From positions 3,377 to 67,376 of the forward strand of contig CAZZLK010000021.1 in the NCBI GenBank assembly GCA_964655195.1: DNA of 64,000 nt. The letters are read 5' to 3'. Positions 12,050-35,820 of this stretch are shown piece by piece (positions within the stretch are counted from its first letter, which is position 1; each line of letters begins with the position of its first letter). The stretch is from an uncultured bacterium (GTDB lineage Bacteria > DUMJ01). The notes beneath the pieces were generated by a model. That model did no database searches and was not told the DNA's origin. It saw nothing but the letters and a program-made list of their open reading frames with translations. The translations under genes and the position numbers were made by a program.

Positions 12050-12693
12050 CTCCAAGAATAGTTTTTAGTATATTTGGGATACCGGTGACTGACTCTGTGA
12101 CCACTACTTGGGTGGTTATGGGGTTTATCCTGCTTTTAGGATGGATTCTCTCTAAAAATCTATCCGAACGACCAAGCAAGATTCAGGCTGTGCTTGAGAG
12201 CGTTATAGACTTTTACGAAAATATAGCGGTGCAAATAATGGGAGAAGAAGGCAAACAGTTTGTTCCTCTGGCTGTATCTATTGGTCTTTTTATACTGCTT
12301 TCTAACTGGATAGAGATAATACCTGGATTTAACGCGCCAACAAGAGATTTAAGTACAACTATAGCGTTAGCTATAGTTGCTGTCTCTTCTACGTATGTGG
12401 TTGGGATCAAGAAAAAGGGCTTGAGGTTCTTCAAAAAGTATATAGAGCCTAGTCCGATATTTCTGCCTATAAATATTCTAGAAGAACTAGTCAGACCTAT
12501 CTCTCTTAGCTTCCGTTTGTTTGGCAATATCCTAGGGGAAGAGATAGTTATAGCCATATTAGTGATGATCGTACCTCTAATCTTGCCTATTCCTATGATA
12601 CTTTTAGGTCTATTCACTGGTCTAATTCAGGCATTTATCTTCTCCCTTCTAACCCTGCTGTATGTAGCTGGAGCAGTAGGAGAAGAAGTCTAG
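12037..12693 (+). CDS. atpB: F0F1 ATP synthase subunit a
   Basis: Conserved stator Arg region LSFRLFGNILGEE. 218 aa polytopic membrane protein. Confidence 0.9.
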   Translation: MEEIAPRIVFSIFGIPVTDSVTTTWVVMGFILLLGWILSKNLSERPSKIQAVLESVIDFYENIAVQIMGEEGKQFVPLAVSIGLFILLSNWIEIIPGFNAPTRDLSTTIALAIVAVSSTYVVGIKKKGLRFFKKYIEPSPIFLPINILEELVRPISLSFRLFGNILGEEIVIAILVMIVPLILPIPMILLGLFTGLIQAFIFSLLTLLYVAGAVGEEV

Positions 12694-12982: not shown

Positions 12983-13477
12983 ATGATAAGGTTCACTTTT
13001 CCTACATTTATATTCCAGATTATAAACTTCTTGGTCACCCTGTACTTGATATATAGGTTTGTCTATAACCCTATAGCCAGGTATATATCTAAAAGGCAGG
13101 AGAGTATAGAGAGTGAGCTTGAGAGGGCTAAAGCTGAGAGAGAATCAGCTGAGGCCCTGAAATTAGCGTATGAAGAGAAGTTAAAAGAGGCACAAAGACA
13201 GGCGGAAGAGATTATAGAAAGGGCTAAACTTCAAGCAGAGGAAGAAAGAAAACAGATATTAGATAGGGCCCAGAGGGAGGCTCAAGCTCTGTTTAACAAA
13301 GCTCAGAACGAACTTCTCCTAGAGCGAAAACATGCGATAGAAAAATTTAAAGAGGAAATTACAGAAATAGTACTCGACCTGGTATCAAAACTTATTATGG
13401 TAGAATTCAACAGTAAGGATAAGATTAGAGAGAAAATACTGGAAAAGTATATGGAGGGGATAAAGAGTTATAAATGA
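12983..13477 (+). CDS. atpF: F0F1 ATP synthase subunit b
   Basis: N-terminal TM helix followed by a long charged coiled-coil (E/K/A/R-rich). 164 aa. Confidence 0.85.

Positions 13478-15518: not shown

Positions 15519-15519
<1 letters not shown>
13474..15519 (+). CDS. atpA: F0F1 ATP synthase delta (OSCP)-alpha in-frame fusion protein
   Basis: 681 aa. Residues ~1-180 align to delta/OSCP: [47 protein letters not shown] resembles E. coli delta [45 protein letters not shown]. From ~181 it is canonical alpha: [27 protein letters not shown] and Walker [19 protein letters not shown]. No stop or start codon lies between the parts; the junction ..[19 protein letters not shown].. is near nt 14011. Confidence 0.85.
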
Positions 15520-19445: not shown

Positions 19446-21395
19446 GTGAGATTCATAGTCTTTAATATGATTAAAGAAAGGAGGGCTAAATTGACTAGGA
19501 AGATAATACTGATATTAGCTTTGCTTATCTTCTTCTGTATTATCTTTAATAGCTATGTCTTATCAGGCGAAAAGATTAAGATATCTGGTATTGAAATCCA
19601 GGGGAACCGTAATATCCCTAAAGAAGAGATAATAAAGATACTCGACCTTCCAGAAGAGATAGACGAAGACATAGTTAGATCAGGACTACAGAGGCTCTTA
19701 AATACAGGATACTTTTCCAATATTGACGCTAGTATGAAAGTGGATGGAAGTAAGTATATCTTAGTTATTAGCGTAAGTGAAGCTCCAGTCTTTAAAGAGA
19801 TTAAAGTGGTGGGTAATAAAGATATAGATACTGCAGAGATAGTAAACCTTATCTCTTTAAAGTCAGGCACCACTATAAATCTTATCACCTTAAACCAGGA
19901 TTTAGGTAAGATTGCAGAACTCTACAAGAGTAGAGGATACATAGGAGCAAACTTCCAGGTCAATATAACTGAAGATGGAATAATAGTCATAAATATAAAC
20001 GAGGGCCCAACTGTTTCAGGTTTTATATTTAAAGGAAACACTGTAATAAAGTCGGAAGATCTGGATAAAGAGCTAGAAAAATACAGAGGAAAGACCTTGA
20101 ATACAAATCTATTAAAGGATATGGCACTAAATATTCAGGAGTTCTATAATAAGAAAGGATATCCTGCCTGTGTTATTCTCAATGCGTACAGCGATACAAA
20201 TGGAGTAGTGACATTTGAAATAGGTGAAGGTAAGATTGCAAAGATAGTTATCGATGGAAATAAAAAGACAAAAGACTACGTAATTCTCAGGGAGATGGAA
20301 ACCAAAGCTGGAGACGTTCTTAATACTACTAAAATTCAAAAAGACCTTCAGAAGATATTTAACCTTGGTTATTTTTCAGATGTAAATGCAGATATCAAGT
20401 CTGCCGAAACCCCTGGTGAAATTATCCTAACAGTCAGGGTAGTGGAGCAACTCACTGGACAGGCAAATGGTGGTATAGCCTATAGCACCGCCGAGGGTTT
20501 TTCTATAATATTAGGAATTAAAGACTCAAATCTATTGGGAACAGGAAGAGATTTAGGTCTGTATCTAAATATAGGAGTTACCGCTCGTGATATAACACTA
20601 AATTATACCGAGCCGTATGCTTTCGGAACCACAGGAACCTTAAGTACTTATCTAGTATGGAGGAAGGCAGATAATACAGATATAATAGAGAACACATCAA
20701 TTAACTATTCGGAGGATAGAAAGACCCTTGAATTGACGTTGACTAAACCGATAGATATAAACCTAAAGGGTACGATAGGATTCTCTTATAATGATATAAC
20801 TTATCAGGCTAAAGAGGATGTAACACTACCAGAGATGATAAAGTCTGGTATCTCTAGCGCCCTAGTCCTGGGAGTTGCCAAAGATACAAGAGATGTAATC
20901 TTAAACCCTATGAAGGGGGACTACTACTCACTAAATATAAAGCAGGGCGGAGGAATATTCGGTGGAGACTTCAATTTTACAAGACTCAATATCGACCTAA
21001 GATGGTATTTCCCAACATCAGACAAAGATACACTTGCTTTAAACTGCACCTTGGGATTAGGTTTTGGTGAGCTACCATATATAGAGAAGTTCAGTGTTGG
21101 AGGGGTAAATTCTGTAAGGGGACTTCCAGAAAACTGGAAAAAGTCAGACTATTTAGAACTTATAAGTCTTGAATATAGAAACAAGATACAGGATAATGTA
21201 TTTGGTGTGATATTTTTAGACTTAGGAAATGGATGGAAGAGTGGAGAAACGATAAATCTTACAGATCTATATACTGGAATAGGCCTTGGGTTGAGAATAA
21301 TGGTCCCTCCTATGGGGTTATTAAGACTAGATTATGGCTGGGGTAGTTATGACTGGCAGGGAAGATTCTATTTTAGTGTGGGACAAAAATTCTAA
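19446..21395 (+). CDS. bamA: Outer membrane protein assembly factor BamA/Omp85 (POTRA repeats plus C-terminal beta-barrel)
   Basis: Signal/TM segment, POTRA-like repeats (ISGIEIQGNRNIPKEEI...) and a C-terminal barrel ending ..GRFYFSVGQKF. Confidence 0.8.
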   Translation: MRFIVFNMIKERRAKLTRKIILILALLIFFCIIFNSYVLSGEKIKISGIEIQGNRNIPKEEIIKILDLPEEIDEDIVRSGLQRLLNTGYFSNIDASMKVDGSKYILVISVSEAPVFKEIKVVGNKDIDTAEIVNLISLKSGTTINLITLNQDLGKIAELYKSRGYIGANFQVNITEDGIIVININEGPTVSGFIFKGNTVIKSEDLDKELEKYRGKTLNTNLLKDMALNIQEFYNKKGYPACVILNAYSDTNGVVTFEIGEGKIAKIVIDGNKKTKDYVILREMETKAGDVLNTTKIQKDLQKIFNLGYFSDVNADIKSAETPGEIILTVRVVEQLTGQANGGIAYSTAEGFSIILGIKDSNLLGTGRDLGLYLNIGVTARDITLNYTEPYAFGTTGTLSTYLVWRKADNTDIIENTSINYSEDRKTLELTLTKPIDINLKGTIGFSYNDITYQAKEDVTLPEMIKSGISSALVLGVAKDTRDVILNPMKGDYYSLNIKQGGGIFGGDFNFTRLNIDLRWYFPTSDKDTLALNCTLGLGFGELPYIEKFSVGGVNSVRGLPENWKKSDYLELISLEYRNKIQDNVFGVIFLDLGNGWKSGETINLTDLYTGIGLGLRIMVPPMGLLRLDYGWGSYDWQGRFYFSVGQKF

Positions 21396-21404
21396 GTATG
21401 GGAG

Positions 21405-21881
21405 TTGATGTATAAAATGGATAAGAGGTTATTAATTTTGGCATTGATTATAGGTGCAGTTGGTATTCTTCTTTGGGGGCTGAGTATCCCGAGGTATGGA
21501 TTTGCGCTAGACACATTTAAGATTGGGTATGTAGATATAAACAAAGTCATAGAGAATCATCCCAGGATCGAAAAGGTAAAGAAGGATATAAATGACTTTG
21601 CTATGAAAACTAAGGCAGAATATCAGAAACAGTTAGATGAAGCGGTAAAAGATAAAACAGCTGTTGAGGCTCAACAACTAAAGGCGGAATATGAAGCCAG
21701 ACTAAATCAAGTTGTAGCTCAAAGACAACAGGAGATGTTAAAGCCAATACTCGATGACATTAAATTGGCAGTGAGAGATATATCTAAAAAAAGAGGCATA
21801 GATATAGTATTAAGGAGTGAGATAGTAATAACTGGTGGTATAGACATTACTGATGATGTCATAAAGGCTATAAAGAAATGA
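21405..21881 (+). CDS. skp: OmpH/Skp-family periplasmic chaperone
   Basis: 158 aa, signal peptide then a long Q/K/E-rich helical region. Canonical position between bamA and lpxD. Confidence 0.7.
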   Translation: MMYKMDKRLLILALIIGAVGILLWGLSIPRYGFALDTFKIGYVDINKVIENHPRIEKVKKDINDFAMKTKAEYQKQLDEAVKDKTAVEAQQLKAEYEARLNQVVAQRQQEMLKPILDDIKLAVRDISKKRGIDIVLRSEIVITGGIDITDDVIKAIKK

Positions 21882-22888
21882 ATTATAAGTTAGAGGAGAT
21901 AGCCAGATTTATAAACGGCAAACTTTTTGGGCCCCCAGACATGGTGATAACTGGAGTAAATTCTCCAGAGTTAGCAGGTGAGAAGGAAATATGTATCATC
22001 TATGATGAAAAGTTTGTAGATGTGATAAAAAATAGAAATGTTGGAGCAGTCATAATCAGAGAAGGATTAAAAGTTGATAAGCCTCATATAGTAGTATCAG
22101 ACCCTAGAGCTATTATGCCAGTTATTCTAAATCTTTTTGCTAAAAAAAAGGAGCTTCGAGGTATAGATAAGTCTGCTATTGTAGGAGATAACTGTACTAT
22201 TCCTGAGAGCTGTTTTATAGGTCCCTATGTAGTTATAGGAGATAGGGTAAAGCTTGGAGAAAGAGTTATCATTATGGCTGGAAGTAAGATTGGAGACGAA
22301 GTTATCATAGGGGATGACTCTTTTATCGGCTACAATGTAATAATAGACGATAGTAGTGTTATAGGGAAGAGGGTCAAAATTCAACACGGAGCGGTTATCG
22401 GGAAAGAAGGCTTTGGCTTCTACAGGGGTCAGGAAGGTTATATAAGGATTCCTCACCTTGGCAATGTGGTAATAGAAGATGATGTAGAGATCGGAGCTAA
22501 TAGTGTGGTTGATAGAGCTACTCTTGGATCCACTATTATTAAGAAGGGTACGAAGATAGATAGCCTGGTATTGGTAGGACATAATGTAAAGGTAGGGGAA
22601 GATACTGCTATAGCTGGACAAAGTGGTGTAGCAGGAAGTTCAGAAGTAGGCAATAGATGTATGATAGGAGGACAGGTAGGCATAGCAGATCACCTCAAGG
22701 TTGGAGATAATACAATAATCTTTGCCAAGACAGGGGTTATAGGAGATATACCTTCAAATTCTGTTGTATCTGGTATACCGGCAAGACCTCATAGAGAGTG
22801 GTTAAAAGCACAGGCTATTTTATTAAAACTACCAAAAATAATCAGGCAGTTAGGGATAAAGGATGTGGCAGACGACAGTAAAGAGTAA
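21878..22888 (+). CDS. lpxD: UDP-3-O-acylglucosamine N-acyltransferase
   Basis: Left-handed beta-helix hexapeptide repeats throughout. Position after skp. Confidence 0.88.
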   Translation: MNYKLEEIARFINGKLFGPPDMVITGVNSPELAGEKEICIIYDEKFVDVIKNRNVGAVIIREGLKVDKPHIVVSDPRAIMPVILNLFAKKKELRGIDKSAIVGDNCTIPESCFIGPYVVIGDRVKLGERVIIMAGSKIGDEVIIGDDSFIGYNVIIDDSSVIGKRVKIQHGAVIGKEGFGFYRGQEGYIRIPHLGNVVIEDDVEIGANSVVDRATLGSTIIKKGTKIDSLVLVGHNVKVGEDTAIAGQSGVAGSSEVGNRCMIGGQVGIADHLKVGDNTIIFAKTGVIGDIPSNSVVSGIPARPHREWLKAQAILLKLPKIIRQLGIKDVADDSKE

Positions 22889-23678
22889 AGTAGAGATAAG
22901 AGGGGTTGGACTGCATACTGGAAAAGAGAGTAGGATTATAATATCTCCAGCATCCGCAGATACAGGTATAGTGTTTAACTTTGCAAAGAATAGCTTCACA
23001 AAGATCAAAGTGGATAGTATGGTCATCTCTACCAATAGAGGGACTATTTTGGCTCATAACGAGTACTCCATATATACAGTTGAGCATATCCTTTCTGCCC
23101 TTAATGGGCTAGAGATAGATAATGTGGAGATCATTGTAGATGGTGAAGAGATACCATCCTGTGATGGAAGTGCTAAGACCTTCGTAGACAAGTTAAAAGA
23201 AGCAGGGATAGAAATATTGGATAAAAAAAGGAAAGTAATTCAGCTTCCGGAACCTGTATGGATATTTAATGGAGAGAAGGGAATATTTGCACTACCCAGC
23301 GATAGACTCTCTATTTATTACACGATAGAATTTCCTCGGATAGGAAAACAGTGGATATTCTATGAACATAATCCCTTGAGATATGAGCTGGAGATTGCAC
23401 CTGCCAGGACATTTGGTTTTGAAGAGGAGATAGAGATGCTAATCACTGAGGGTTTAGCAAAGGGAGGAAACCTTCAGAATTCCGTTATAGTTGGGAAAAA
23501 TGGATACTCGTCACCACTCAGATATCCAGATGAGTTTGTAAGGCATAAACTCTTGGACCTTATGGGAGACATATATTTGTTAGGGAAACGTATTAATGCT
23601 ACAATATTTGTAGTAAAAGGTGGTCATAATCTTCACGTAGAATTAGTAAAGAAGATAAAAGAGGTGATCGATGATTGA
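22863..23678 (+). CDS. lpxC: UDP-3-O-acyl-N-acetylglucosamine deacetylase
   Basis: N-terminus ..KVEIRGVGLHTGKESRIIISPA and zinc-ligand context. 271 aa. Confidence 0.92.
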   Translation: MWQTTVKSKVEIRGVGLHTGKESRIIISPASADTGIVFNFAKNSFTKIKVDSMVISTNRGTILAHNEYSIYTVEHILSALNGLEIDNVEIIVDGEEIPSCDGSAKTFVDKLKEAGIEILDKKRKVIQLPEPVWIFNGEKGIFALPSDRLSIYYTIEFPRIGKQWIFYEHNPLRYELEIAPARTFGFEEEIEMLITEGLAKGGNLQNSVIVGKNGYSSPLRYPDEFVRHKLLDLMGDIYLLGKRINATIFVVKGGHNLHVELVKKIKEVIDD

Positions 23679-24162
23679 TAGAGAGATTTCAACTTTGAAC
23701 ATATATGAACTCTTAAATATACTACCCCACAGATATCCATTCTTATTGGTGGATAAGATTATAGAATACGAAAAGGGGAAGAGGGTAAAGGGTGTAAAGA
23801 ATGTGACCATAAATGAACCATATTTTCCTGGACATTTTCCGGAATTCCCGATTACGCCAGGTGTTATCATTATAGAAGCTATGGCACAGATAGGTGGGCT
23901 CCTTTTACTAGAAGAGGCAAAAGAAAAGGATGAGCTGGCAATATTAAGTGGGGTAGATAAAGTCAGGTTTCGTAGAATGGTAAGACCCGGAGATCAGATA
24001 GTGATAGAGGCAGAAATTCTTCAAAGAAAGATTAATTTTTGCAAATTAAAGTGTACCGCATACGTAGAGAGTAATGTGGTAGCAGAAGGTGAGTTATTAA
24101 TAGCGTTATACAAGGAGGATTCTATCCGTGACATATATACATCCAACAGCGATAATAGATGA
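23671..24162 (+). CDS. fabZ: 3-hydroxyacyl-[ACP] dehydratase
   Basis: Hot-dog fold with YFPGHFPEFPITPGV and EAMAQIGG motifs. Confidence 0.9.
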   Translation: MIDREISTLNIYELLNILPHRYPFLLVDKIIEYEKGKRVKGVKNVTINEPYFPGHFPEFPITPGVIIIEAMAQIGGLLLLEEAKEKDELAILSGVDKVRFRRMVRPGDQIVIEAEILQRKINFCKLKCTAYVESNVVAEGELLIALYKEDSIRDIYTSNSDNR

Positions 24163-24952
24163 GTCGGTCAAGTTAGGAATCGATGTGGAAATTGGGCCCT
24201 ATGTAGTAATAAAACATGATACTGTTATAGGAAGTGGTACTAAGATCGATGCCCATTGTATTATAGGCCCATGGGTCACTATAGGGAGTAAGTGTGAGAT
24301 ATACGGAGGATGTTCTATAGGTGCTCCGCCTCAAGACATAAGATATAAAGGTGAAAGAAGTTTTGTAATAATTGGAGATAATAACATCCTCAGAGAGTTT
24401 GTTACTATACATAGAGCAACAGGAAAAGACAAAGCCACTATAATAGGAGATGGCAATTTCCTTATGGCATATTCCCATATAGCCCATAACTGTAAACTTG
24501 GTAACGGGATAACTATGGCTAATTCTTCTAATCTGGCAGGTTATGTAGAAGTATATGATAAGGCTGTTATAGGAGGAATAGTTGGGATACACCAATTTGT
24601 CAGGATAGGAAGGTTAGCTATGGTAGGAGCCTGCTCTAAAGTTGTTCAGGATGTCCTTCCATTTTCTCTTGTAGATGGACATCCGGCCAAGGCTTACGGT
24701 ATAAATGTAGTTGGACTTAGGAGAGCAGGATACTCACCAGAGATCAGGAGTATCCTACAGAGGGCATTTAAAATTTTCTACTTTGCCCATCCCAACAGAT
24801 CCAAGTCGCTTACTATGCTTTTAGAGGAGCTTGACAGTATACCTGAAGTTGAAGAGATGGTAGAATTTATCAGAAACAGTAGAAGGGGGATCGTAAAAGC
24901 AGCTAAAGAAGCTTTACAATGGGACGTTCAGACATTCTTAGAAAATATGTAA
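24128..24952 (+). CDS. lpxA: Acyl-[ACP]--UDP-N-acetylglucosamine O-acyltransferase
   Basis: Hexapeptide-repeat beta-helix plus the C-terminal helical domain typical of LpxA. 274 aa. Confidence 0.9.
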   Translation: MTYIHPTAIIDESVKLGIDVEIGPYVVIKHDTVIGSGTKIDAHCIIGPWVTIGSKCEIYGGCSIGAPPQDIRYKGERSFVIIGDNNILREFVTIHRATGKDKATIIGDGNFLMAYSHIAHNCKLGNGITMANSSNLAGYVEVYDKAVIGGIVGIHQFVRIGRLAMVGACSKVVQDVLPFSLVDGHPAKAYGINVVGLRRAGYSPEIRSILQRAFKIFYFAHPNRSKSLTMLLEELDSIPEVEEMVEFIRNSRRGIVKAAKEALQWDVQTFLENM

Positions 24953-26091
24953 GAATTGCTATTCTGGCAGGTGAGGTATCCGGAGATATACAGGGGTCTT
25001 ATCTTGCTAATGGACTGTTGAACAATGATTATGGAATAAAAGTAGCACTCTGTGGTATTGGGGGGGAATATATGAGAAATAGGGGAGTCAAGTTATGGGA
25101 GGAAACAGCCAGGTATGGTTCAGTTGGTTTTTGGGAACCAGTAAAATTTCTGCCTAACTGGCTTAAGATTTACAATAAAGTTAAAGAAATGCTAAAGAAA
25201 GAAGAATTAGATGGGGTAATTTTTATTGATAATCAGGGATTTAATCTTCAGGTAGCCAAGTTTATCAAGAGAGAAAGACCTGATTTGTCTATGTTCTATT
25301 ACTTTTCTCCACAGGCATGGCTTTGGGGTAGTGGAATAGCCAAACAGGTAAGAGACCTTGGAATTAAAGTTTTGGCAGTTTTTCAGAAAGAAGCAGAGGT
25401 ATACAGGGAGAATAACGTAGAGGTATATTTCGTAGGACATCCTCTTTTAGATATAGTAGAGGCAAAGGTCCCCTCAGAAAAGATAAGAGAAAGTTTAGGG
25501 ATAAAGGATGACCTTCCCCTTATCGGAATATTTCCTGGAAGTAGACAACAGGAGGTCATTTCTCTATTACCAATTATTTTAGAAGGGATCGCTCCTCTAA
25601 TAAATAGAGAGGCTTACTTTTATATAGCCAGTGCATCTGATTTTACCTACAAGTGGATTGGAGAGATCTTAGAAAAAAAGAATCTATATATACCAATTAT
25701 CTCCAACAATAGATATGACTATATGAATGCCTCTAAACTCCTAATTATGGCGTCTGGAACGGCAGTCTTAGAGGCATCTCTTATAGGTATCCCGGTTATA
25801 GCTCTATATAAACTATCGTGGATTTCCTGGAATATTGCAAAAAAGATAGTTCATTACCCCTATGCTACTATGCCGAATATCTTACTTGAAAAGCCGGTTG
25901 TCATAGAGCTGCTTCAGAAGGATGCTAATCCTGTAAGGTTAAGGGAGACTGTAAGAGAGTTGCTGGGTGATAGTAAAAAGATAGAAAGCATCAAAAAAGA
26001 TCTGGAAGGGGTAAGAGAAGTATTGGGAGAGAAGGGAGCGATAAAGAGAGCGGTCGAATTTATCTTTAAGGGGCTGAACTGTATTGAGTAA
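24919..26091 (+). CDS. lpxB: Lipid-A-disaccharide synthase (glycosyltransferase family 19)
   Basis: N-terminus IAILAGEVSGDIQGSYLANGL aligns with LpxB LVAGETSGDILGAGLI. 390 aa. Confidence 0.85.
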   Translation: MGRSDILRKYVRIAILAGEVSGDIQGSYLANGLLNNDYGIKVALCGIGGEYMRNRGVKLWEETARYGSVGFWEPVKFLPNWLKIYNKVKEMLKKEELDGVIFIDNQGFNLQVAKFIKRERPDLSMFYYFSPQAWLWGSGIAKQVRDLGIKVLAVFQKEAEVYRENNVEVYFVGHPLLDIVEAKVPSEKIRESLGIKDDLPLIGIFPGSRQQEVISLLPIILEGIAPLINREAYFYIASASDFTYKWIGEILEKKNLYIPIISNNRYDYMNASKLLIMASGTAVLEASLIGIPVIALYKLSWISWNIAKKIVHYPYATMPNILLEKPVVIELLQKDANPVRLRETVRELLGDSKKIESIKKDLEGVREVLGEKGAIKRAVEFIFKGLNCIE

Positions 26092-27211
26092 GTTGATTAT
26101 GCTCACCAACAGTCCTGGAGAAATAGGAGGATGGTTTCTACCTTTAGCAAAAGCTATAAAAGAGACTTATCCTGCCATAGATATAATAGCTATTCTTTTG
26201 CCATGTCAGTATGCAAGTGGAACTGAATATAGGGTACTTTTAGAGTCTGGATTATTCTCTAGGGTGATAGATAGAAAAGAACTACTGAAATTTTTTACAA
26301 CTCCGGATTTAAATGACAAAAGGATACTTATTTTGCAGCTTGGAGGAGACCCATACTGGGGAACCCTGCTCAAGATAAGATTAAAGAGTAAGCTCTTTAT
26401 ATATTCTGATAGCCTAGTCCATACAAATCGATGGGCAGATAAGATTCTTCTGAGCGATTCAAGATTCTCTAGAGGGAGAGAAAACGAAGTCGTAGTTGGT
26501 AATCTAATCCTTGAGAGTATAGACAGAGATATCACAGTAAACGGATCTAGTATAGCATTCTTACCTGGTAGTAGGCCATATGGACTCAAGTTGATACTCC
26601 CTCTAATGCTTGAAACCGCTGAGATATTAAGGAAGACTTCAGATAATTCGATAAAATTTATTGTTTCACCATTTATCCCTCTTGAAAGTCTGAATAGATA
26701 TGTTCCAGCTAATTTCGCATTAGAGCAAGATAGGATAATTTCTGGCTCAGGAAACGTCTATATACTCGAATATGGAGGGTCTTGGGATTGGGTGAAAGAT
26801 GTGAGATTGGCTATAAATATTCCTGGAACAAATACCTTACAACTGGCGCTTTTGGGTATACCTCAGATAACTATACTCCCACTTCAATGGGCTGAATATA
26901 TCCCTCTAGAGGGTATAATGGAGTGGATAAGTAGGGCACCTCTTATAGGTAAGCCTATAAAAAGAAAAATAATTTATAGACTTATTCCTAAAATTAGGTT
27001 TATAGCCCTCCCCAATATAGTCTCCAAAAGGAAGATTACAGAGGAACTTATAATGGAGATTACACCGGAACTTCTAGCTCAAAAGATATTAGAACTTCTA
27101 AAAGATCAAGAACGACTAGATAAAATGAAAGAGGAGCTAAAGAGTATAGATTTCCTAAGCGGAGCCGGAAGAAATATAGCTAAAATTATAGGTGAAGAAC
27201 TCTGTGAGTAA
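26084..27211 (+). CDS. Divergent LpxB-like glycosyltransferase family 19 paralog
   Basis: 375 aa. LTNSPGEIGGWFLPLAKAIKETYP resembles the LpxB N-terminus. AFLPGSRPYGLKLILPLMLETAEIL and ALPNIVSKRKITEELI align with LpxB [24 protein letters not shown] and SLPNLLAGRELVKELL. Confidence 0.6.
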   Translation: MSKLIMLTNSPGEIGGWFLPLAKAIKETYPAIDIIAILLPCQYASGTEYRVLLESGLFSRVIDRKELLKFFTTPDLNDKRILILQLGGDPYWGTLLKIRLKSKLFIYSDSLVHTNRWADKILLSDSRFSRGRENEVVVGNLILESIDRDITVNGSSIAFLPGSRPYGLKLILPLMLETAEILRKTSDNSIKFIVSPFIPLESLNRYVPANFALEQDRIISGSGNVYILEYGGSWDWVKDVRLAINIPGTNTLQLALLGIPQITILPLQWAEYIPLEGIMEWISRAPLIGKPIKRKIIYRLIPKIRFIALPNIVSKRKITEELIMEITPELLAQKILELLKDQERLDKMKEELKSIDFLSGAGRNIAKIIGEELCE

Positions 27212-28616
27212 TCTTGATTGGGGTCTTATCATATTTCTCATAGCTATAAGTGGGTTTATAGCGTTTGTAGGTAACTATGTTGGGAGGAGGGCAGGGAAGA
27301 GAAGAATCTCTATACTTGGTATAAGACCATATTATACCTCTATGATTATAACGGTACTTACTGGTATTATAATTACTACTGTAACTTTAATTACTCTTAT
27401 TAGTGTATCTTCAAGTATGAGAAGCGCATTAGAGAATAAAGCTCAACTTCAGGAGACAATAAAACTTCTTTCGCAAAGGTTAAGTGCTACAGAGTCAGAA
27501 CTTTCTATAAGGGCAAGTGAACTAAGTGCAGCCATAGAGTATCAAAAAAAGTTAGAAAAGAGCATAAAGGAGCAGAATGAAAGAGTAAAAGAGCTAGAAA
27601 AGAAGTTAAAAGAGACAGAAGAAGAAATAAAAAATAGAGAGATTATTCTAAAGAATAGAGAGATTGCGTTAGAAGAAAGTAAAGCTCAGTTGAGGGAATT
27701 AGATAGGCAGAGAGAACATCTTATCAAAACAATCTCTGAATTAAATAAAGAAGTGGAACAGCTTAAGAGAGAGAAGAATAGTCTTTTACAGGAAAATACA
27801 CAACTTAAGGACAAATTAAATAAATTAGGAAAAGTGGTATCTTCTCTTGAAGAACAGAGAAAGATTTTGAATAATAAGTTAGAACTATACAGTTCTGAAT
27901 TGGCCGAGTTAAAGAAAGAGATAAACGATTATAAAGCTCAGGCAAAGGAACTTAAGAAAGAGATAAAACAGAAGGAATCACAGCTAAATTTATTAAGACA
28001 CCAGAAAATTCTTTTTTACGGGGGAGAGATAATACTAGCAGAGACCATAAATGGACCCAAAAGTGAACAAGAAGCCAAGGACAGCTTAAAATATATGCTA
28101 GAGAGGGCTGAAGAGATAGCAAGATATAGATATCTGCATTCGGGAGAATCTGTGCCTGATAAGGATACCCCACTAATATCTTATGATCCAAGCGAGTTAG
28201 AAAGTGTAATAAGATCTCTAAAAGAGGAACAGCGACTAATACGTATAAGAGTAAGAAACAATACGTTTGTTTATGAACCGATTTATGTAACTATAGAGTC
28301 TTTAAAGAGTAGATTGATATTTAGTAAGGATGAAACTATCGTCTTTAAATTTATCTCTGCCAAGTTGCCAAGGAATAAAATAATCGAAGAGCTCGATACT
28401 TTACTAAGTGAAGTAAGAAAAGAGGGTATAAGAAGAGGTATGATTATTGACCATCTAACCAATCCTATCAGTAACGTATCTTATGAGACGCTCTTGGGAC
28501 TATCGGTTAGAATAAAAGTCAACTATATGAAATTTGGAAGCACTTTAGTTGTGGTTAAAGCGGAAAGAGACATATACACTGGAGGTCCCTTAAGAATAAA
28601 ATTTGAGCTTCGTTAG
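27192..28616 (+). CDS. Membrane-anchored coiled-coil protein, DUF3084-like
   Basis: N-terminal TM helix plus ..VGRRAGKRRISILGIRPYYTSMIITVLTGIIITTVTL.., typical of DUF3084. Then ~250 aa of heptad-rich coiled coil. Confidence 0.5.
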   Translation: MKNSVSNLDWGLIIFLIAISGFIAFVGNYVGRRAGKRRISILGIRPYYTSMIITVLTGIIITTVTLITLISVSSSMRSALENKAQLQETIKLLSQRLSATESELSIRASELSAAIEYQKKLEKSIKEQNERVKELEKKLKETEEEIKNREIILKNREIALEESKAQLRELDRQREHLIKTISELNKEVEQLKREKNSLLQENTQLKDKLNKLGKVVSSLEEQRKILNNKLELYSSELAELKKEINDYKAQAKELKKEIKQKESQLNLLRHQKILFYGGEIILAETINGPKSEQEAKDSLKYMLERAEEIARYRYLHSGESVPDKDTPLISYDPSELESVIRSLKEEQRLIRIRVRNNTFVYEPIYVTIESLKSRLIFSKDETIVFKFISAKLPRNKIIEELDTLLSEVRKEGIRRGMIIDHLTNPISNVSYETLLGLSVRIKVNYMKFGSTLVVVKAERDIYTGGPLRIKFELR

Positions 28617-28795: not shown

Positions 28796-30037
28796 ATGAG
28801 CGCAGGGACATTTCAGAATCAAAATATATATAGAGTCCTAAATCTGACAGGGATTTTTGCTATCATACTCATCTCTTCTTACCTGTCCTGGAGAACGGCG
28901 GAGTTTTGGAAGATAAAAGAAGGAATCCCTATGGTTTCTCTGATACTCGCAGCCCATATCATATCCTCTCTTATAATCTCTAAGCTCATTATATTCCCTA
29001 AGATCGAACATCTGGGTATAGTCTTCTCTACAGTTAGCTTTATGCTTTTATTAGTTATTGGCATTATCGCAGTAAGTAGAATTTACTATTCACGGAGTTT
29101 CTTGTTATCTTCATATATCTTAGATGTCATCCTCCTTATACTCTGTAATCATAGAAAAAAGAAACCTGTCTTTGCTCTTCTCCCTTTTGACAAAAGAGAT
29201 GAAGACTTACTTAAAATAAGTAACATAGACTGGTGTATCCTCCAGTCTCCTTCTGTTGATAATGTAGATCTAGATGGTATTGTGGTGACCTCTTTGAAAG
29301 ATCTAACCCCTGAATGGGCCCATTTTATTGTTACCCAAAAACTTAAAGGGACCTCAATATACCATGCATCAGAAGTATATGAATTAATACTGGGAAAATT
29401 ACCTCTTAAATATTTCTACTCAGAACTCATAGAAAGTTCGAGTCAGCCTTTTGTTACAAAATTTATAAAGAGATTGTCTGATATTATACTCGCTTCCCTT
29501 CTCTTCCCTATCGCTCTTATATTATCAATTATAATAGCCTTACTTATAAAAATAGACTCTGAAGGACCGGTCTTCTTCACACAGGATAGAATTGGTCAAG
29601 GGGGTAAAACTTATAAGATCATAAAATTCAGGACTATGTACAAGGATGCTGAGATCGACGGACCTAGGTTTACAGAAAGGGATGATCCACGTATTACATA
29701 TATAGGACGTATATTAAGAAGGCTTCATTTAGACGAGCTCCCACAGATCTGGAATATTCTGAAAGGCGAGATGAGTTTTATAGGTCCAAGACCAGAGCAG
29801 GCAAAGTTAGTAAAGGAGTTTGAAAAGGAGATTCCCTTCTATAGTTATAGACACCTAGTGAAACCAGGTATAACCGGTTGGGCACAGGTAAACCAAGGTT
29901 ATGCAGCAGGAATTACAGAAACGATAGAAAAATTGGAATATGACCTCTACTATATAAAGAATCTGTCCCCTTGGCTTGACCTCGTAATACTGCTTAAGAC
30001 CGTAAAGATGATAATAACCAGATGGGGTTCAAGGTAA
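28796..30037 (+). CDS. Polyprenyl-phosphate sugar phosphotransferase (bacterial sugar transferase family, WbaP/WcaJ-like)
   Basis: N-terminal multi-TM region. C-terminal catalytic domain with ..KFRTMYKDAE.. and SFIGPRPE motifs. Confidence 0.85.
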   Translation: MSAGTFQNQNIYRVLNLTGIFAIILISSYLSWRTAEFWKIKEGIPMVSLILAAHIISSLIISKLIIFPKIEHLGIVFSTVSFMLLLVIGIIAVSRIYYSRSFLLSSYILDVILLILCNHRKKKPVFALLPFDKRDEDLLKISNIDWCILQSPSVDNVDLDGIVVTSLKDLTPEWAHFIVTQKLKGTSIYHASEVYELILGKLPLKYFYSELIESSSQPFVTKFIKRLSDIILASLLFPIALILSIIIALLIKIDSEGPVFFTQDRIGQGGKTYKIIKFRTMYKDAEIDGPRFTERDDPRITYIGRILRRLHLDELPQIWNILKGEMSFIGPRPEQAKLVKEFEKEIPFYSYRHLVKPGITGWAQVNQGYAAGITETIEKLEYDLYYIKNLSPWLDLVILLKTVKMIITRWGSR

Positions 30038-30409: not shown

Positions 30410-32173
30410 ATGAAATATCTGATTAAACTAGTGAAGATTGCCAGACCATACTGGAAGTATCTTATAATTGCTGGTGTTAGTAATCTAACTATAACTGGGA
30501 TCAATCTGTTAGGACCATGGCTAGCAAGACAACTCATCAATATTATTACAAACCTTAATCAGTATCCAGACGCGAAGAGCTACATAATAAGACTCTCCAT
30601 CATTTTAATATCTTCCTATATAGCCAGAATAATTTTTCAGTTCTTAGCCAGTTACTTGTCTCACTATGCCGCCTGGCATCTAGTAGCCCATATGAGGGGC
30701 CTGGTATACGATAAACTCCAGCAGTTATCGTTTAGATTCTTCCAAGACAAACAGACAGGACAGCTTATGTCAAGGGTGGTAAACGATACTGCTAATTTTG
30801 AAGCACTGATTGCCCATGCTGTGCCAGATTTATTTACAAATGCCCTCATTATCCTAGGAGTTATTATTATACTCTTTATAGTAAATCCAACCCTAGCCTT
30901 TTTGTCACTCCTCCCTATCCCATTTTTAGTATATACAGGAACAAGATTTGCAAAAAGAGTACTACCAAACTTTAGAGAAGCACAGAGGGCTCTTGCAGAT
31001 TTAAATGCAGACCTACAGGATAATATATCAGGCATACGTGAGATACAACTCTTTAACCAGCAGAAGAGGGAGTTAACCAAGATACAAAACAAAGTCTATA
31101 GACATATACAGGCACTTTTAAATGCACTGAGACTTAGCGCCATCTTCCATCCTACGGTCAGTTTTCTAAGTTCGATAGGAACAGTGATCGTCTCCTCCGT
31201 CGGAGGAATTATGGCAGTGAACGGAAAGGTCTCTGCAGGAGACATAGTAGGGTTTATGCTTTACCTGAATATGTTTTATTTTCCGATAACTGCTCTCAGT
31301 CAAGTAATCGAGAATATTCAGCAGGCTCTGGCAGGTGCAGAGAGAGTATTTGAGATATTGGAGACAGAATCGGAAATCAAAGAGAGACCAGATGCGATTG
31401 AACTAAAGGATGTTAAAGGGCGAGTAACATTTGAGAATGTAAGCTTCTCTTATGATAAAAAGGTTCCAGTGTTAAAAAATATAACATTCAACATAGAACC
31501 TGGCCAGATGGTTGCCTTTGTAGGTCCTACAGGGGTTGGGAAGACAACAATAATGTATCTTCTGGTCAGGTTCTTTGATCCGGATTCCGGAAGTATAAAG
31601 ATAGATGGAATATATATTAGAGACGTTACATTAAAGTCTCTCCATGATAATATAAGTATGGTAATGCAAGATGTCTTTCTATTTAATGGGACTATCGCCG
31701 AGAATATTGCGTATGGGAAAGAAGATGCAACTATGGATGAGATAATAAACGCTGCGAAAATAGCCTGCGCACATGACTTTATTGTAGAATTACCAGATGG
31801 ATACTATACCTACATAGGCGAAAGGGGGGTCAAACTCTCTGGTGGACAGAAGCAGAGGTTAGCAATCGCTAGAGCAGTTCTGAAAAATTCCCCCATACTG
31901 ATCTTAGATGAGGCGACCTCATCTGTAGATACTGAGACTGAAACTAAGATTCAGGAAGCAATTAACAACCTTGCCGGAACAAAAACAATCCTTATTATAG
32001 CCCACAGGTTATCTACAGTAAAAAGGGCAGATAAGATTATCGTATTGAAAGAAGGCGAAATTGTAGAAGAAGGAACACACGAAGAACTTATGGCTCTTAA
32101 GGGGCTGTACTACCACTTAAGCTCTGTTCAGTTTTTAGAGGAAGAAGTATATAATTCCAAATTTAATATCTAA
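30410..32173 (+). CDS. ABC transporter, fused permease/ATP-binding protein (MsbA-like lipid exporter)
   Basis: Six-TM domain plus an NBD with Walker A GPTGVGKTT, signature LSGGQKQRLAIARA and Walker B ILILDEATS. Located downstream of the lipid A genes. Confidence 0.8.
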   Translation: MKYLIKLVKIARPYWKYLIIAGVSNLTITGINLLGPWLARQLINIITNLNQYPDAKSYIIRLSIILISSYIARIIFQFLASYLSHYAAWHLVAHMRGLVYDKLQQLSFRFFQDKQTGQLMSRVVNDTANFEALIAHAVPDLFTNALIILGVIIILFIVNPTLAFLSLLPIPFLVYTGTRFAKRVLPNFREAQRALADLNADLQDNISGIREIQLFNQQKRELTKIQNKVYRHIQALLNALRLSAIFHPTVSFLSSIGTVIVSSVGGIMAVNGKVSAGDIVGFMLYLNMFYFPITALSQVIENIQQALAGAERVFEILETESEIKERPDAIELKDVKGRVTFENVSFSYDKKVPVLKNITFNIEPGQMVAFVGPTGVGKTTIMYLLVRFFDPDSGSIKIDGIYIRDVTLKSLHDNISMVMQDVFLFNGTIAENIAYGKEDATMDEIINAAKIACAHDFIVELPDGYYTYIGERGVKLSGGQKQRLAIARAVLKNSPILILDEATSSVDTETETKIQEAINNLAGTKTILIIAHRLSTVKRADKIIVLKEGEIVEEGTHEELMALKGLYYHLSSVQFLEEEVYNSKFNI

Positions 32174-32689: not shown

Positions 32690-33676
32690 TCATATAACTT
32701 CTTCATTCCCTCTAAGATCTCCTCCTGCTTTGAAATCAGCTTTTCCATCAGTGTAGCAGGGTCTTCGTAAAAAAACTGATTTTGCCCGAATCTTTTCTAG
32801 AGCTACTCTTAAATATCCATCTGACTCTTCCAAGAGTCTTCTACTTTCTTCAGGCCCAAGGTTTCCTACTATACTTATTATTGCTTCCTTTACATTCATA
32901 TTACAAGCTTTTAATCTTTCCAATGCTAATTCTTCTGTAGCTCCTGTAATCTTAGTTATTATCCGGATAGCCCTATTTATAAGCTTCTGATTTGTCGGTC
33001 TCACATCGACCATAATATTTCCGTAGACCTTTCCCAGTTTTACCATACTTATAGTACTGAACATATTTAATACCATCTTCTGAGAAGTTCCTGCCTTAAG
33101 TCTTGTTGACCCTGCAATAACTTCTGGACCTGTATCTATCTCTATTGCTATATCCACAAAATCTTTAGCAGGAGAATTATAGTTGTTTGTCAACAGGATA
33201 GTCCTTGCACCCCTTTTATGTGCTTCTTCCAAGGCAGAAAGAACAAATGGGGTGGTGCCACTGGCAGTTATACCTACCACTGCATCATTATCAGATATAC
33301 TTCTTCTTTCTATCTCTTCCCTTCCCTGTTTAACATCATCCTCGGCATATTCTACTGCAGATGTGATAGCCCTTTCTCCTCCGGCAATTATAGCCTGGAC
33401 CATTTCTGGATCCACCCCGAAAGTAGGTGGACATTCCGCAGAATCTAAGATGCCTAACCTTCCGCTAGTTCCAGCTCCTACATAGAGTAGTCTTCCACCT
33501 TTTTTAAAGCACTCGACTATAATATCAATAGCCCTAGCTATGTCTGGCAAGACCTTTTCTATAGCCAATGGGACCTTCTTATCTTCCTGATTCATAAGTT
33601 TAACCATCTCGATGGTGCTCAGTAGATCAAAATTTGACGTCAACTCATTATAGTCTTCTGTTCCCATACAGTTCAC
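32690..33676 (-). CDS. murQ: N-acetylmuramic acid 6-phosphate etherase
   Basis: SIS domain with GGRLLYVGAGTSGRLGILDSAECPPTFG, near-identical to the MurQ signature. Confidence 0.92.
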   Translation of the reverse strand: MNCMGTEDYNELTSNFDLLSTIEMVKLMNQEDKKVPLAIEKVLPDIARAIDIIVECFKKGGRLLYVGAGTSGRLGILDSAECPPTFGVDPEMVQAIIAGGERAITSAVEYAEDDVKQGREEIERRSISDNDAVVGITASGTTPFVLSALEEAHKRGARTILLTNNYNSPAKDFVDIAIEIDTGPEVIAGSTRLKAGTSQKMVLNMFSTISMVKLGKVYGNIMVDVRPTNQKLINRAIRIITKITGATEELALERLKACNMNVKEAIISIVGNLGPEESRRLLEESDGYLRVALEKIRAKSVFLRRPCYTDGKADFKAGGDLRGNEEVI

Positions 33677-34584
33677 CCCTTTTCTAGATATCTCTGTCCT
33701 ATCAATATAGCTCCAACTATAGGCTCTGCTCTGGCTGGGAAGATACTAACATTTGGGAATTTCTCTCTTATATACCTGGTGAAGGAATCAGTTATTATAT
33801 CTCTTGCCTTAAAGAATCCTCCAGTATATGCTATGTTGAATTTATCTTCACTCTGGTATCCTAAACCTTCTGCTGTTGAAATAGCTAGACAACTTAGCTC
33901 ATAAGCTGCAGATTTCAATATTTCCAACGCTACCTTATCTCCAAGTTCCCCAGCCTTTACAACATATCTAGCGAAACCAGATATTATGTCTTTAGCTTTC
34001 TCGTAAATAATCTTTATTAATGCCTCCATTTCTCCAGCGCCAAGATATTCATAAATCATATCTAAGAGAACCGTTTCTTCCCCCCTTCCATCGTATGCCT
34101 TGAGTCCTGCTATAATCCCTCTTCTACCAACATCATATGCGCTACCCTCATCCCCTAATAGATATCCCCAACCACCAGTTCTCTTTTCTGTATTATTCCT
34201 CCTCCCATAGCCAATTGAGCCTGTACCAGCTATAACTATTATACCTTCAGTATCTAAGAGGGCTCCTACCAAAGCAATATGTGCATCGGTGGTCACTATA
34301 ACATCATTTGCGATATTCAAAGAGAAAAGAAAATCCCTCAATTCCCATTCTTTCTTAGCTACCCCAGCGACTCCAGCGCTAATTAGACTAATTTTAATAT
34401 TAGGGATTTGTCTGAGTGCAGACTCTATCCCCTCTATAATGTTTTCTATGGCAACTTTTCTTGGGGTTGTGGTCCAGTTTGACGGACCACTATAAGCCTT
34501 AGAGATTATCTCTCCTGTATCTGTAGCTACTGCTACTTCTGTCTTTGTTCCTCCACCATCTATACCAAGGATATACCTTGCCAA
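33673..34584 (-). CDS. BadF/BadG/BcrA/BcrD-type ATPase, probable MurNAc/GlcNAc kinase (MurK-like)
   Basis: N-terminal ILGIDGGGTKTEVAVA phosphate-1 motif of the ASKHA sugar kinases. Translationally coupled to murQ. Confidence 0.65.
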   Translation of the reverse strand: MARYILGIDGGGTKTEVAVATDTGEIISKAYSGPSNWTTTPRKVAIENIIEGIESALRQIPNIKISLISAGVAGVAKKEWELRDFLFSLNIANDVIVTTDAHIALVGALLDTEGIIVIAGTGSIGYGRRNNTEKRTGGWGYLLGDEGSAYDVGRRGIIAGLKAYDGRGEETVLLDMIYEYLGAGEMEALIKIIYEKAKDIISGFARYVVKAGELGDKVALEILKSAAYELSCLAISTAEGLGYQSEDKFNIAYTGGFFKARDIITDSFTRYIREKFPNVSIFPARAEPIVGAILIGQRYLEKG

Positions 34585-34596
34585 AATACATCCTCC

Positions 34597-35820
34597 TTAC
34601 TTATAGATCAAATATTTACTCCTTAATCTCAGAAAATCTCCTATACCCTTTTCCCAGGTTTTTATAATTTCTTTAGGATTCATACCACTCTCTATGTACT
34701 TTCTAATCCTATCTGTTCCCATACTTAAATCAAAGATATACCTACCATTAGACCTGTCTCCCCAGTTAAAACTCTTAGGATAAAGCCTGTATATAACGTC
34801 TAGAATATTCAGACAGACTTCCAGTGGTTTAAACTTATTTCTATCGTTTATAAATATCTCTATACCCTTACATACCTCATTCTGAAATTTAGAGTATCGA
34901 GGTATAAAGTAAGCAGCTCTAAATGCAACTCCCTCAATCTTTCTTCTCAAAAGTTCTTCTATCAGTCTATCAGGATCAATGTAAGGGGCTCCAACAAAGT
35001 GAAAAGGTTTAGTCGTTCCAACACCTACAGATAGATACGTATCCCCTATAGGACCAGTACAGGGATATAACATTACTGTCTCAAAGTCCGGGATATTGGG
35101 AGAAGATATAACCCAATGTAATCCAGTCTGATCAAACAACATAGCCCTCCTCCATCCCTTCATAGGAATAACTGTCAGCCTTGAGGATATCCTAAATTCG
35201 CTGTTAAATAGGAGTGCCAATTCTCCAACAGTCATTCCATATATATTAGGTATTGGATAGAGTCCGATAAAAGAACTGAAATCAGTTTCTAACACAGGAC
35301 CATCCACATATACCCCACCGAGAGGGTTAGGTCTATCAAGAACTATAAAATCTATACCATTCTCCTTTGCGGATTGCATAGCCAGAGCCATAGTAGATAT
35401 ATAAGTATAATGTCTTACTCCAACATCCTGTATATCAAAAATAAGGGCATCTATATCCTTTAGCATATCTCGAGTAGGCTTTCTCGTTTCCCCATAAAGA
35501 CTATATAAAGGAAGCCTAGTCTTTTCATCTATATAGCTCTTTACGTACTCTCCCGCTAATCTTTCTCCCCTTATACCATGTTCTGGTGAAAAAAGGGCTG
35601 TTAGCTTTACCTCAGGGTTCCTGTAAAGGAGATCTATATTACTTCTTAACTGACTATCAACACCAGTCTGATTCGTAATAAGCCCTACACGTTTCCCTCT
35701 TATAAGATCAACCCTTTCACTCAGTAAGACCTCTAATCCTAACTTTACTTTACCATTTGCCATAACAATCTCACTAACTATAATACTTAAAGATAATAAT
35801 GCTACTATAAATCTAACCAT
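34597..35820 (-). CDS. DUF1343-family protein (exo-beta-N-acetylmuramidase NamZ/YbbC-like), secreted
   Basis: Signal peptide plus ..RVGLITNQTGVDSQL..LFSPEHGIRG.. characteristic of DUF1343. Clustered with murQ. Confidence 0.65.
   Translation of the reverse strand: MVRFIVALLSLSIIVSEIVMANGKVKLGLEVLLSERVDLIRGKRVGLITNQTGVDSQLRSNIDLLYRNPEVKLTALFSPEHGIRGERLAGEYVKSYIDEKTRLPLYSLYGETRKPTRDMLKDIDALIFDIQDVGVRHYTYISTMALAMQSAKENGIDFIVLDRPNPLGGVYVDGPVLETDFSSFIGLYPIPNIYGMTVGELALLFNSEFRISSRLTVIPMKGWRRAMLFDQTGLHWVISSPNIPDFETVMLYPCTGPIGDTYLSVGVGTTKPFHFVGAPYIDPDRLIEELLRRKIEGVAFRAAYFIPRYSKFQNEVCKGIEIFINDRNKFKPLEVCLNILDVIYRLYPKSFNWGDRSNGRYIFDLSMGTDRIRKYIESGMNPKEIIKTWEKGIGDFLRLRSKYLIYK

Follow-up and report, generated by a model that had tools for sequence, protein, structure and literature searches.

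Why should a lipid A gene cluster encode two consecutive proteins of the lipid A disaccharide synthase (LpxB) type? The question is raised by a 64-kb stretch of DNA (64,000 nucleotides, hereafter the window) from an uncultured bacterium of the DUMJ01 lineage (assembly GCA_964655195.1, contig CAZZLK010000021.1), in which lpxA is followed by two overlapping genes on the same strand that both align to LpxB. A preliminary description, made from the sequence letters, had placed this tandem pair at positions 24919 to 27211, and the two open reading frames (ORF1 and ORF2) begin and end exactly there. It took the first for a canonical LpxB and the second for a divergent paralog that might use a different acceptor or donor, or serve as a non-catalytic partner. 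We report that ORF2 represents a third clade of the glycosyltransferase family 19 (GT19) superfamily, previously unnamed and here given the working name B2, whose members are candidates for a lipid A-directed glycosyltransferase.

The canonical character of ORF1 (390 residues, ATG start) is borne out at every level. It scores 251 bits on the Pfam LpxB model over its full length (residues 13-372) and 225.3 bits on the NCBIfam LpxB equivalog TIGR00215 (EC 2.4.1.182; cutoff 190.25), and it clusters with E. coli LpxB in a neighbor-joining tree. All active-site residues of the E. coli enzyme are kept, with E19, S21, D104, PGSR 206-209, T281, E285 and N320 of ORF1 corresponding to E15, S17, D98, P198-R201, T277, E281 and N316. 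Judged by scores, tree and residues, ORF1 is an ordinary LpxB, and as such already known. ORF2 (375 residues) scores as a family 19 protein on Pfam LpxB (PF02684), as the preliminary description had supposed, with 37.2 bits (E=2.1e-9; gathering score 22.6) over an aligned stretch of only residues 296-355. On the two equivalog models it stays far below the cutoffs, reaching 46.6 bits on TIGR00215 and 28.1 bits on TIGR03492 (cutoff 219.2). Ten other B2 members score 25-73 bits on TIGR00215, and none of the ten attains the cutoff of either model.

The divergence of ORF2 lies mainly in its N-terminal half, as first described: BLASTP similarity to ORF1 is confined to 209 C-terminal residues (24% identity, E=1e-9). 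Both sequence blocks that had been quoted as conserved are present, namely AFLPGSRPYG (residues 158-167), which holds the PGSR motif, and ALPNIVSKRKIT (residues 308-319), which holds the LPN motif. A profile built from 56 ORF2 relatives nevertheless matches E. coli LpxB (5w8n) across positions 23-399 of 404 with E=4e-21, and the AlphaFold2 model of ORF2 (predicted local distance difference test score 93.1) matches the GT-B fold. Much like LpxB and ORF1, ORF2 has no transmembrane helix and is basic, with an isoelectric point of 8.8. These profile and model matches put ORF2 in the GT19/Pfam LpxB superfamily, where it is neither LpxB proper nor TIGR03492.

The preliminary description had left the choice between an ancient paralog family and a recent duplication, and the phylogeny decides for the former. 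In a neighbor-joining tree of 81 LpxB, B2 and TIGR03492 sequences, the three groups form separate clades with bootstrap values of 100, 99 and 100 respectively, ORF2 falls inside B2, and identity between clades is 18-20%. An exhaustive profile search delimits B2 at no fewer than 512 representatives at 50% identity (E<=1e-30). Close orthologs of ORF2 (60-90% identity) occur in about 10 related contigs with identical synteny from murA to DUF3084, and full-length relatives at 28-35% identity number in the hundreds, across several phyla. The carriers, known from metagenome-assembled genomes (MAGs), include Aerophobetes, Synergistaceae, diderm Bacillota (e.g. Hydrogenispora), Armatimonadota and Vulcanimicrobiota/Eremiobacterota. 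Against two orthologs, the ratio of nonsynonymous to synonymous substitution rates (dN/dS) is 0.16 and 0.11 for ORF2, and 0.10 and 0.07 for lpxB; ORF2 is under purifying selection. By tree and distribution, B2 is an ancient sister clade of LpxB that is widespread in Terrabacteria-type diderms. Literature searches on LpxB paralogs, LpxB2, LpxB-like proteins and TIGR03492 found no paper describing B2.

The residue anatomy of B2 separates a nucleotide side that is kept from an acceptor side that is not. We took residue roles from the crystal-structure paper on E. coli LpxB (PMC5785501) and counted conservation over 56 B2 sequences (Table 1). On the nucleotide side, the PGSR block corresponds to LpxB P198-R201, which binds uracil and pyrophosphate and supplies the leaving-group arginine (PMC5785501). 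T249 corresponds to T277, the beta-phosphate contact, and is threonine in 54 of the 56 sequences; Q253 corresponds to the ribose-binding E281 and is Gln in 30 and Glu in 25 of the 56. For the candidate catalytic base the alignments differ: HMMER pairs the B2 motif LGGD with VGID98 of LpxB, while MAFFT sets D89 two columns off D98. D89 ends the same strand (beta-4) as D98, the predicted base of LpxB. N311 and E321, the counterparts of N316 and E326 in the swapped C-terminal segment of LpxB, are invariant in both B2 and LpxB and absent from TIGR03492. On the acceptor side, none of the LpxB-invariant residues E15, S17, N103, P123, W126 and W128 survives in ORF2 or across B2, each being replaced or deleted. 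ORF2 has N9, P11 and W92 as replacements and lacks the SPxxWAW segment, and the B2 loop T-N-S-P-G-E stands where LpxB has its invariant G-E15-x-S17-G-D19.

In place of these residues B2 has invariants of its own. The PCQYASGxE motif is found in neither LpxB nor TIGR03492 by column comparison, and W17 and P20 are invariant besides NSPGE, P40-C41, G46 and E48. At the start of the LpxB C-terminal swap, B2 carries a longer segment (about 38 profile positions versus 16 in E. coli LpxB) with conserved P266, L267, E271, I273, P274, G277 and K293. An N-x-x-G-E loop is common to B2 and TIGR03492, whereas in the swapped segment B2 has the LPN and PE motifs in common with LpxB only. Since acceptor-side residues are swapped and nucleotide-side residues kept, the first of the two roles offered in the preliminary description, a different acceptor or donor, is favored. 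The second, a non-catalytic partner, is disfavored by invariant catalytic positions and by the dN/dS values, although the physical partnership that it implies is backed by the LpxB-B2 fusions described below. On the simplest reading of its residues, B2 is a catalytically active, inverting glycosyltransferase that binds the nucleotide as LpxB does and takes a different acceptor.

Where B2 would act is suggested by its gene neighborhood. We fetched 79 metagenome loci and nine contigs by exact protein look-up, called their open reading frames and classified these by hidden Markov model (HMM) scores, which were used since single-linkage clustering merges LpxB, B2 and GT2 proteins through fusion proteins. 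For the context counts we left out the window's own lineage, which leaves 78 loci, 73 of them with a downstream gene. An MsbA-like ABC exporter lies immediately downstream of B2 on the same strand in 32 of these 73 loci and within five genes in 41, and exporters near B2 reach as much as 410 bits against E. coli MsbA. The canonical lpxB gene stands immediately upstream in 12/78 loci, and in 8 more a single DUF362/4Fe-4S gene intervenes. A GT2 gene is found within five genes of B2 in 23/78 loci and a TIGR03492 gene in 22/78, and genes for GT9, ArnT-like PMT_2 and Wzy_C proteins recur nearby. The fullest cluster reads lpxC-fabZ-lpxA-(x)-lpxB-B2-msbA-(mannose-1-P-guanylyltransferase-like)-lptC-TIGR03492-lptA-lptB-lptFG-DUF3084.

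The intervening DUF362 gene is an observation in its own right, as it puts an iron-sulfur protein with a 4Fe-4S ferredoxin domain inside a lipid A operon. It lies between lpxB and B2 in 8-10 loci (L009 6839-7987 and L029 8823-9977; also L021, L023, L032, L046, L070, L076 and L078), and its product resembles the Npun_F2552 family at 198 bits, under the cutoff of 500.

Fusion proteins tie B2 to the same partners. Full-length LpxB followed by full-length B2 occurs as one polypeptide of 754-831 residues in 14 clusters (at 90% identity), including contigs of 230-322 kb from Candidatus Bruticola MAGs, where one such protein has 815 residues. A frameshift artefact had been considered for one of these fusions (P0125), but another 13 independent clusters carry the fusion as well, in some cases on contigs as long as 322 kb, and the doubt was dropped. 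Six further locus proteins with B2 HMM scores of 120 bits or more were rejected as fusions, being ordinary LpxBs of 378-412 residues. In at least 10 clusters B2 is fused to an ICMT/PEMT membrane methyltransferase whose closest named relative is Leptospira LmtA, and other fusions join GT2 to B2, B2 to GT2, and RfaE domain II, a domain of ADP-heptose synthesis, to B2. Lineages differ in where the fusion point falls within lpxA-lpxB-B2-ICMT, yet the module itself is conserved. The recurrent LpxB-B2 fusions support a physical partnership of B2 with LpxB.

Together, gene context and fusions assign B2 a functional place beside LpxB: on lipid A, on the cytoplasmic side of the membrane and before MsbA. 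We give about an even chance to the reading that B2 is a lipid A-directed glycosyltransferase which acts on the LpxB product, probably in complex with LpxB, to attach a sugar, either the first of the core or a substituent on the backbone. Physically associated with LpxB on the cytoplasmic side of the inner membrane, B2 would take the tetra-acyl glucosamine disaccharide that LpxB releases, and transfer one further sugar to it from a nucleotide sugar, after which the MsbA-like exporter would flip the glycosylated molecule. The lipid A disaccharide as acceptor, a reaction after LpxB and the formation of a complex are what we infer from these associations. The donor may, loosely, be manno-configured (GDP-mannose, GDP-heptose or ADP-heptose), to go by the neighboring or fused nucleotidyltransferases of ManC-like, HddC-like and RfaE-II type. 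A tentative extension, which we hold to be possible but doubtful, would have B2 initiate core assembly on lipid A in Terrabacteria-type diderms, independently of WaaA. B2 and LpxB would then form a complex with two active sites, as a C-terminal-swapped heterodimer or a fusion, and hand the glycosylated disaccharide to MsbA, with TIGR03492 taking the next step. The same doubtful extension would include lineages with only lpxA, lpxC, lpxD and lpxB in their lipid A clusters. Lineages with only LpxA, LpxC, LpxD and LpxB, and with the gene order of the window, were described by Opiyo et al. 2010 (PMC3087551).

Several observations weigh against assigning B2 to lipid A glycosylation. Searches by phmmer with E. 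coli WaaA and LpxK found no homolog in 1.16 Mb of B2 flanks, which are neighborhoods and not whole genomes, and genome-wide absence does not follow. In Synergistaceae-like loci B2 stands beside gyrB, apart from lipopolysaccharide (LPS) genes. Fusion to LpxB, or adjacency to it, would be equally expected of an enzyme that supplies the acceptor of LpxB. Finally, one carrier genome has a KdsB gene 7 kb away from B2 (locus L005), and B2 is no simple marker of LPS lacking 3-deoxy-D-manno-octulosonate (Kdo), an idea we considered and which this gene weakens. The gene itself, at L005 18478-19698 in a 3.78-Mb genome, is a fusion of RfaE domain II (189 bits, cutoff 181.5) and KdsB (165 bits, cutoff 155).

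Among other explanations, the fusion argument applies to the idea that B2 itself supplies the acceptor of LpxB, as a hydrolase of glycosyltransferase fold that would use water as acceptor and split uridine diphosphate (UDP)-2,3-diacylglucosamine into UDP and 2,3-diacylglucosamine. B2 would then replace LpxH, LpxI or LpxG where these are lacking, as a fourth solution to the LpxH step, and the product would be 1-dephospho lipid A. The part that B2 shares with LpxB is the donor-binding half for UDP-diacylglucosamine, with the LPN and PE motifs missing from TIGR03492; B2 tightly adjoins LpxB; and the order lpxD-lpxC-fabZ-lpxA-lpxB matches the 'four-enzyme' lineages of Opiyo 2010. The absence of lpxH, lpxI and lpxG nearby, noted in the preliminary description, also holds for the 64-kb window: a Pfam scan of its roughly 55 genes finds no member of the LpxH/Metallophos, LpxI, LpxK, WaaA or Kds families, and phmmer gives no match either, whether the query is LpxH, LpxK or WaaA of E. 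coli or an LpxI, LpxG being covered by the Pfam scan only, in which no gene of Metallophos, the family of LpxH and LpxG, turned up. In the neighborhoods examined, however, B2 and the known UDP-diacylglucosamine hydrolases do not exclude one another. A bona fide LpxI (204-617 bits) lies directly beside lpxB and B2 in four loci (L008, L022, L036 and L080), for which we downgraded the idea, and in L097 B2 occurs together with a Metallophos gene. The LmtA-like methyltransferase to which B2 is fused or adjacent has a characterized relative that acts on the lipid A 1-phosphate, and the GT2 and RfaE-II fusions and the adjacency to MsbA suit glycosylation better. B2 is probably not the missing LpxH, and we consider the hydrolase improbable.

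A second isozyme of lipid A disaccharide synthase, running the LpxB reaction on alternative substrates such as precursors based on 2,3-diamino-2,3-dideoxyglucose (GlcN3N), is in our judgment still harder to credit. The score of ORF2 above the Pfam LpxB threshold would fit it, as would the lpxB1 and lpxB2 annotations in Leptospira genomes and, in several carrier loci, a gene for a GnnA-like Gfo/Idh/MocA oxidoreductase that separates fabZ from lpxA. Yet ORF2 and ten other members fall far short of the LpxB equivalog cutoff, every LpxB-invariant acceptor-side residue is lost, a canonical LpxB accompanies B2 wherever the lipid A cluster is visible, even within one polypeptide, which would be redundant for an isozyme, and the window has no GnnA-like gene. 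Equally low is the probability we assign to a catalytically silent structural or regulatory partner that would replace the LpxB homodimer by a C-terminally swapped heterodimer. For E. coli LpxB, dimerization by C-terminal swapping is obligatory (PMC5785501), B2 retains LPN and PE in the segment that is swapped, and the recurrent LpxB-B2 fusion fixes a 1:1 stoichiometry. Residues needed for catalysis only (R164, S163, T249, D89 and Q/E253) are nonetheless invariant or nearly so over phylum-level divergence, the family-specific invariant N-terminal pocket (NSPGE, PC..G.E) suggests a substrate of its own, and many loci have B2 without an adjacent lpxB. As for a decaying recent tandem duplicate of lpxB with no function of its own, the tandem arrangement and the strongly divergent N-terminal half might suggest it, but phylogeny and selection refute it, leaving a negligible probability. 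ORF2 has orthologs of 60-90% identity in 10 fully syntenic related contigs, a dN/dS of 0.11-0.16, an intact reading frame with a Shine-Dalgarno-like AAGGGG upstream, and a separate clade that spans several phyla.

Comparison with known systems sets B2 apart from each of them. With LpxB (GT19; TIGR00215; 5W8N, 5W8S, 5W8X) it shares the GT-B fold, PGSR, GT, the E/Q ribose position, the Asp at the end of beta-4 and the LPN/PE motifs, and both are basic peripheral proteins from a shared operon and often one polypeptide. They differ in their roughly 20% identity, in the wide margin by which B2 misses the equivalog HMM cutoff, in the replacement or deletion of E15, S17, N103 and SPxxWAW, and in the B2 motifs NSPGE..W and PCQYASGxE and the roughly 20 extra residues that B2 has in the swap region. 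TIGR03492 ('lipid-A-disaccharide synthase-related protein', a hypothetical equivalog) is likewise an ancient LpxB-like paralog from the same LPS clusters, and like B2 it carries, in the N-terminal loop, Asn in place of E15 and Glu in place of D19. As a frequent neighbor of B2 it appears as a protein of about 370-410 residues without Pfam match that scores 271-333 bits on TIGR03492, and hhalign relates the two families with 99.6% probability (E=6e-25). It differs from B2 in forming a separate clade (bootstrap 100) at 19% identity, in having SNGHGED instead of TNSPGE and in lacking LPN/PE. Its gene usually lies after msbA or between lptC and lptA; examples are L072 13274-14512, L008 11966-13168, L010 9214-10326 and L005 11243-12370, besides about 20 other loci, and the window has none.

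The likeness to WaaA/KdtA (GT30) would be a functional analogy: WaaA uses CMP-Kdo and has no sequence relationship to ORF2, the two sharing generic GT-B fold similarity only. Genes for LpxH, LpxI and LpxG typically adjoin lpxB, and with none found in the window B2 is a positional candidate for their step. Their folds are unrelated to that of B2, at least four B2 loci have LpxI alongside, and a cleavage of glycosyltransferase type would free UDP and a non-phosphorylated sugar, not uridine monophosphate and lipid X. The Metallophos protein of L097, 245 residues long and encoded at 11848-12585 directly after a B2-ICMT fusion, has an Arg in its block 3 (GNRE) as LpxH does but no BLAST similarity to E. 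coli LpxH, and may be another type of UDP-diacylglucosamine hydrolase. LmtA, the Leptospira lipid A 1-phosphate methyltransferase of the ICMT/PEMT type, is not a homolog of B2; its relatives are recurrent downstream or fused partners, which links B2 with the modification of lipid A on the cytoplasmic side. The B2 partner scores 60 bits on the LmtA model, whose cutoff is 325, and the window's lineage has DUF3084 in that place.

The layout of the window completes the picture (Table 1). On the forward strand the genes run atpC, murA, bamA, skp, lpxD, lpxC, fabZ, lpxA, ORF1, ORF2, DUF3084, polyprenyl glycosylphosphotransferase and MsbA-like ABC exporter, the last of these scoring 484 bits on the MsbA model TIGR02203 (cutoff 602). 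The genes overlap in series (lpxA/ORF1 by 34 nt, ORF1/ORF2 by 8 nt, ORF2/DUF3084 by 20 nt), and the TTG start codon of ORF2 has its AAGGGG 9 nt upstream; on these features lpxD-lpxC-fabZ-lpxA-lpxB-B2-DUF3084 is one operon, in which ORF2 is predicted to be co-translated with LpxB.

Table 1. Coordinates of the outer-membrane and LPS genes of the window and of conserved elements in ORF2 (positions count from the first nucleotide of the window).
Feature	Position	Strand	Basis or conservation
bamA (Omp85 with POTRA repeats), opens the outer-membrane/LPS gene block	19446..21395	+	Pfam POTRA, Omp85
skp/ompH-like periplasmic chaperone	21405..21881	+	Pfam OmpH, 65 bits
lpxD	21878..22888	+	phmmer, E. coli LpxD query, 154.5 bits, E=1.4e-47
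lpxC	22863..23678	+	phmmer, query the Pfam-annotated LpxC of L008, 189 bits
fabZ	23671..24162	+	phmmer, E. coli FabZ query, 134.6 bits
lpxA	24128..24952	+	phmmer, E. coli LpxA query, 204.6 bits
ORF1, canonical lpxB (lipid A disaccharide synthase)	24919..26091	+	Pfam, TIGR00215, tree, residues
ORF2, B2, predicted lipid A-directed glycosyltransferase	26084..27211	+	Pfam LpxB, profile, AlphaFold2 model, tree, dN/dS
ORF2 N-terminal loop T8-N9-S10-P11-G12-E13	26105..26122	+	N9, S10, P11, G12, E13 invariant in 56/56
ORF2 B2-specific motif P40-C41-Q-Y-A-S-G46-x-E48	26201..26227	+	P40, C41, G46, E48 family-invariant
ORF2 G87-G88-D89, candidate catalytic base	26342..26350	+	D in 54/56, E in 2/56
ORF2 P161-G162-S163-R164 (LpxB P198-G199-S200-R201)	26564..26575	+	Invariant in the family
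ORF2 P247-G248-T249-N250-T-L-Q253	26822..26842	+	Alignment to 5w8n
ORF2 B2-specific longer segment, residues 266-300, PL..AE.IPL.G...K	26879..26983	+	Profile versus E. coli LpxB
ORF2 L309-P310-N311...E321 (LpxB SLPN316 and PE326 of the swapped C-terminal segment)	27008..27046	+	Alignment
DUF3084 membrane-anchored coiled-coil protein, probably the last gene of the operon	27192..28616	+	Pfam DUF3084, 75.5 bits
Polyprenyl glycosylphosphotransferase (Bac_transf)	28796..30037	+	Pfam Bac_transf, 227 bits; TIGR03025, 317 bits (cutoff 295.6)
MsbA-like ABC exporter	30410..32173	+	ABC_membrane and ABC_tran; 315 bits to E. coli MsbA

The DUF3084 (COG4372) protein, which appears translationally coupled to ORF2, deserves mention. 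The family also closes the LPS clusters of L008, L022, L071 and L085, and in other phyla it ends the LPS/Lpt cluster after lptFG (L008 16672-end, L071 15087-16268, L085 18869-20041). Antunes 2016 named DUF3084 a conserved, priority unknown of the outer-membrane loci of diderm Firmicutes (PMC5007114).

Elsewhere in the window we recorded further features. A single 681-residue reading frame (13474-15519, forward strand) holds ATP synthase delta (OSCP, residues 17-175) and alpha (217-673) and is either a delta-alpha fusion or the result of a lost stop codon. The reverse strand carries a peptidoglycan-recycling trio at 32690-35820, comprising a MurQ-like SIS protein, a BadF/BadG-type sugar kinase and a NamZ exo-beta-N-acetylmuramidase. 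A 494-residue protein (6927-8411, forward strand) has three C-terminal PASTA repeats and no kinase or penicillin-binding Pfam match in residues 1-260; the Synergistaceae locus L007 has a comparable PASTA gene after rsmB. Downstream of glyA, a 631-residue protein with a NAGPA (phosphodiester glycosidase) domain is encoded at 48762-50657 on the forward strand. Rfam gave no family at gathering score over window positions 1-64000 (no rRNA, riboswitch or leader), tRNAs not being separately scanned.

The B2 family is well defined and widespread, and its fold and chemistry are unsurprising. Knowledge of lipid A and core assembly comes almost wholly from Proteobacteria, and many deep-branching or Terrabacteria-type diderms appear to be without some of LpxH, LpxI, LpxG, LpxK and WaaA, for example Cyanobacteria, Dictyoglomi, Synergistota, Vulcanimicrobiota/Eremiobacterota, Armatimonadota and diderm Bacillota. 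There are also consequences for annotation, as source records call B2 proteins either 'hypothetical protein' or 'lipid-A-disaccharide synthase', and the latter label, which Pfam-based pipelines assign, is probably wrong. B2 is a concrete and testable candidate for one missing step of LPS assembly outside the Proteobacteria, and it would show that the GT19 fold has diversified into at least three enzyme families within one pathway.

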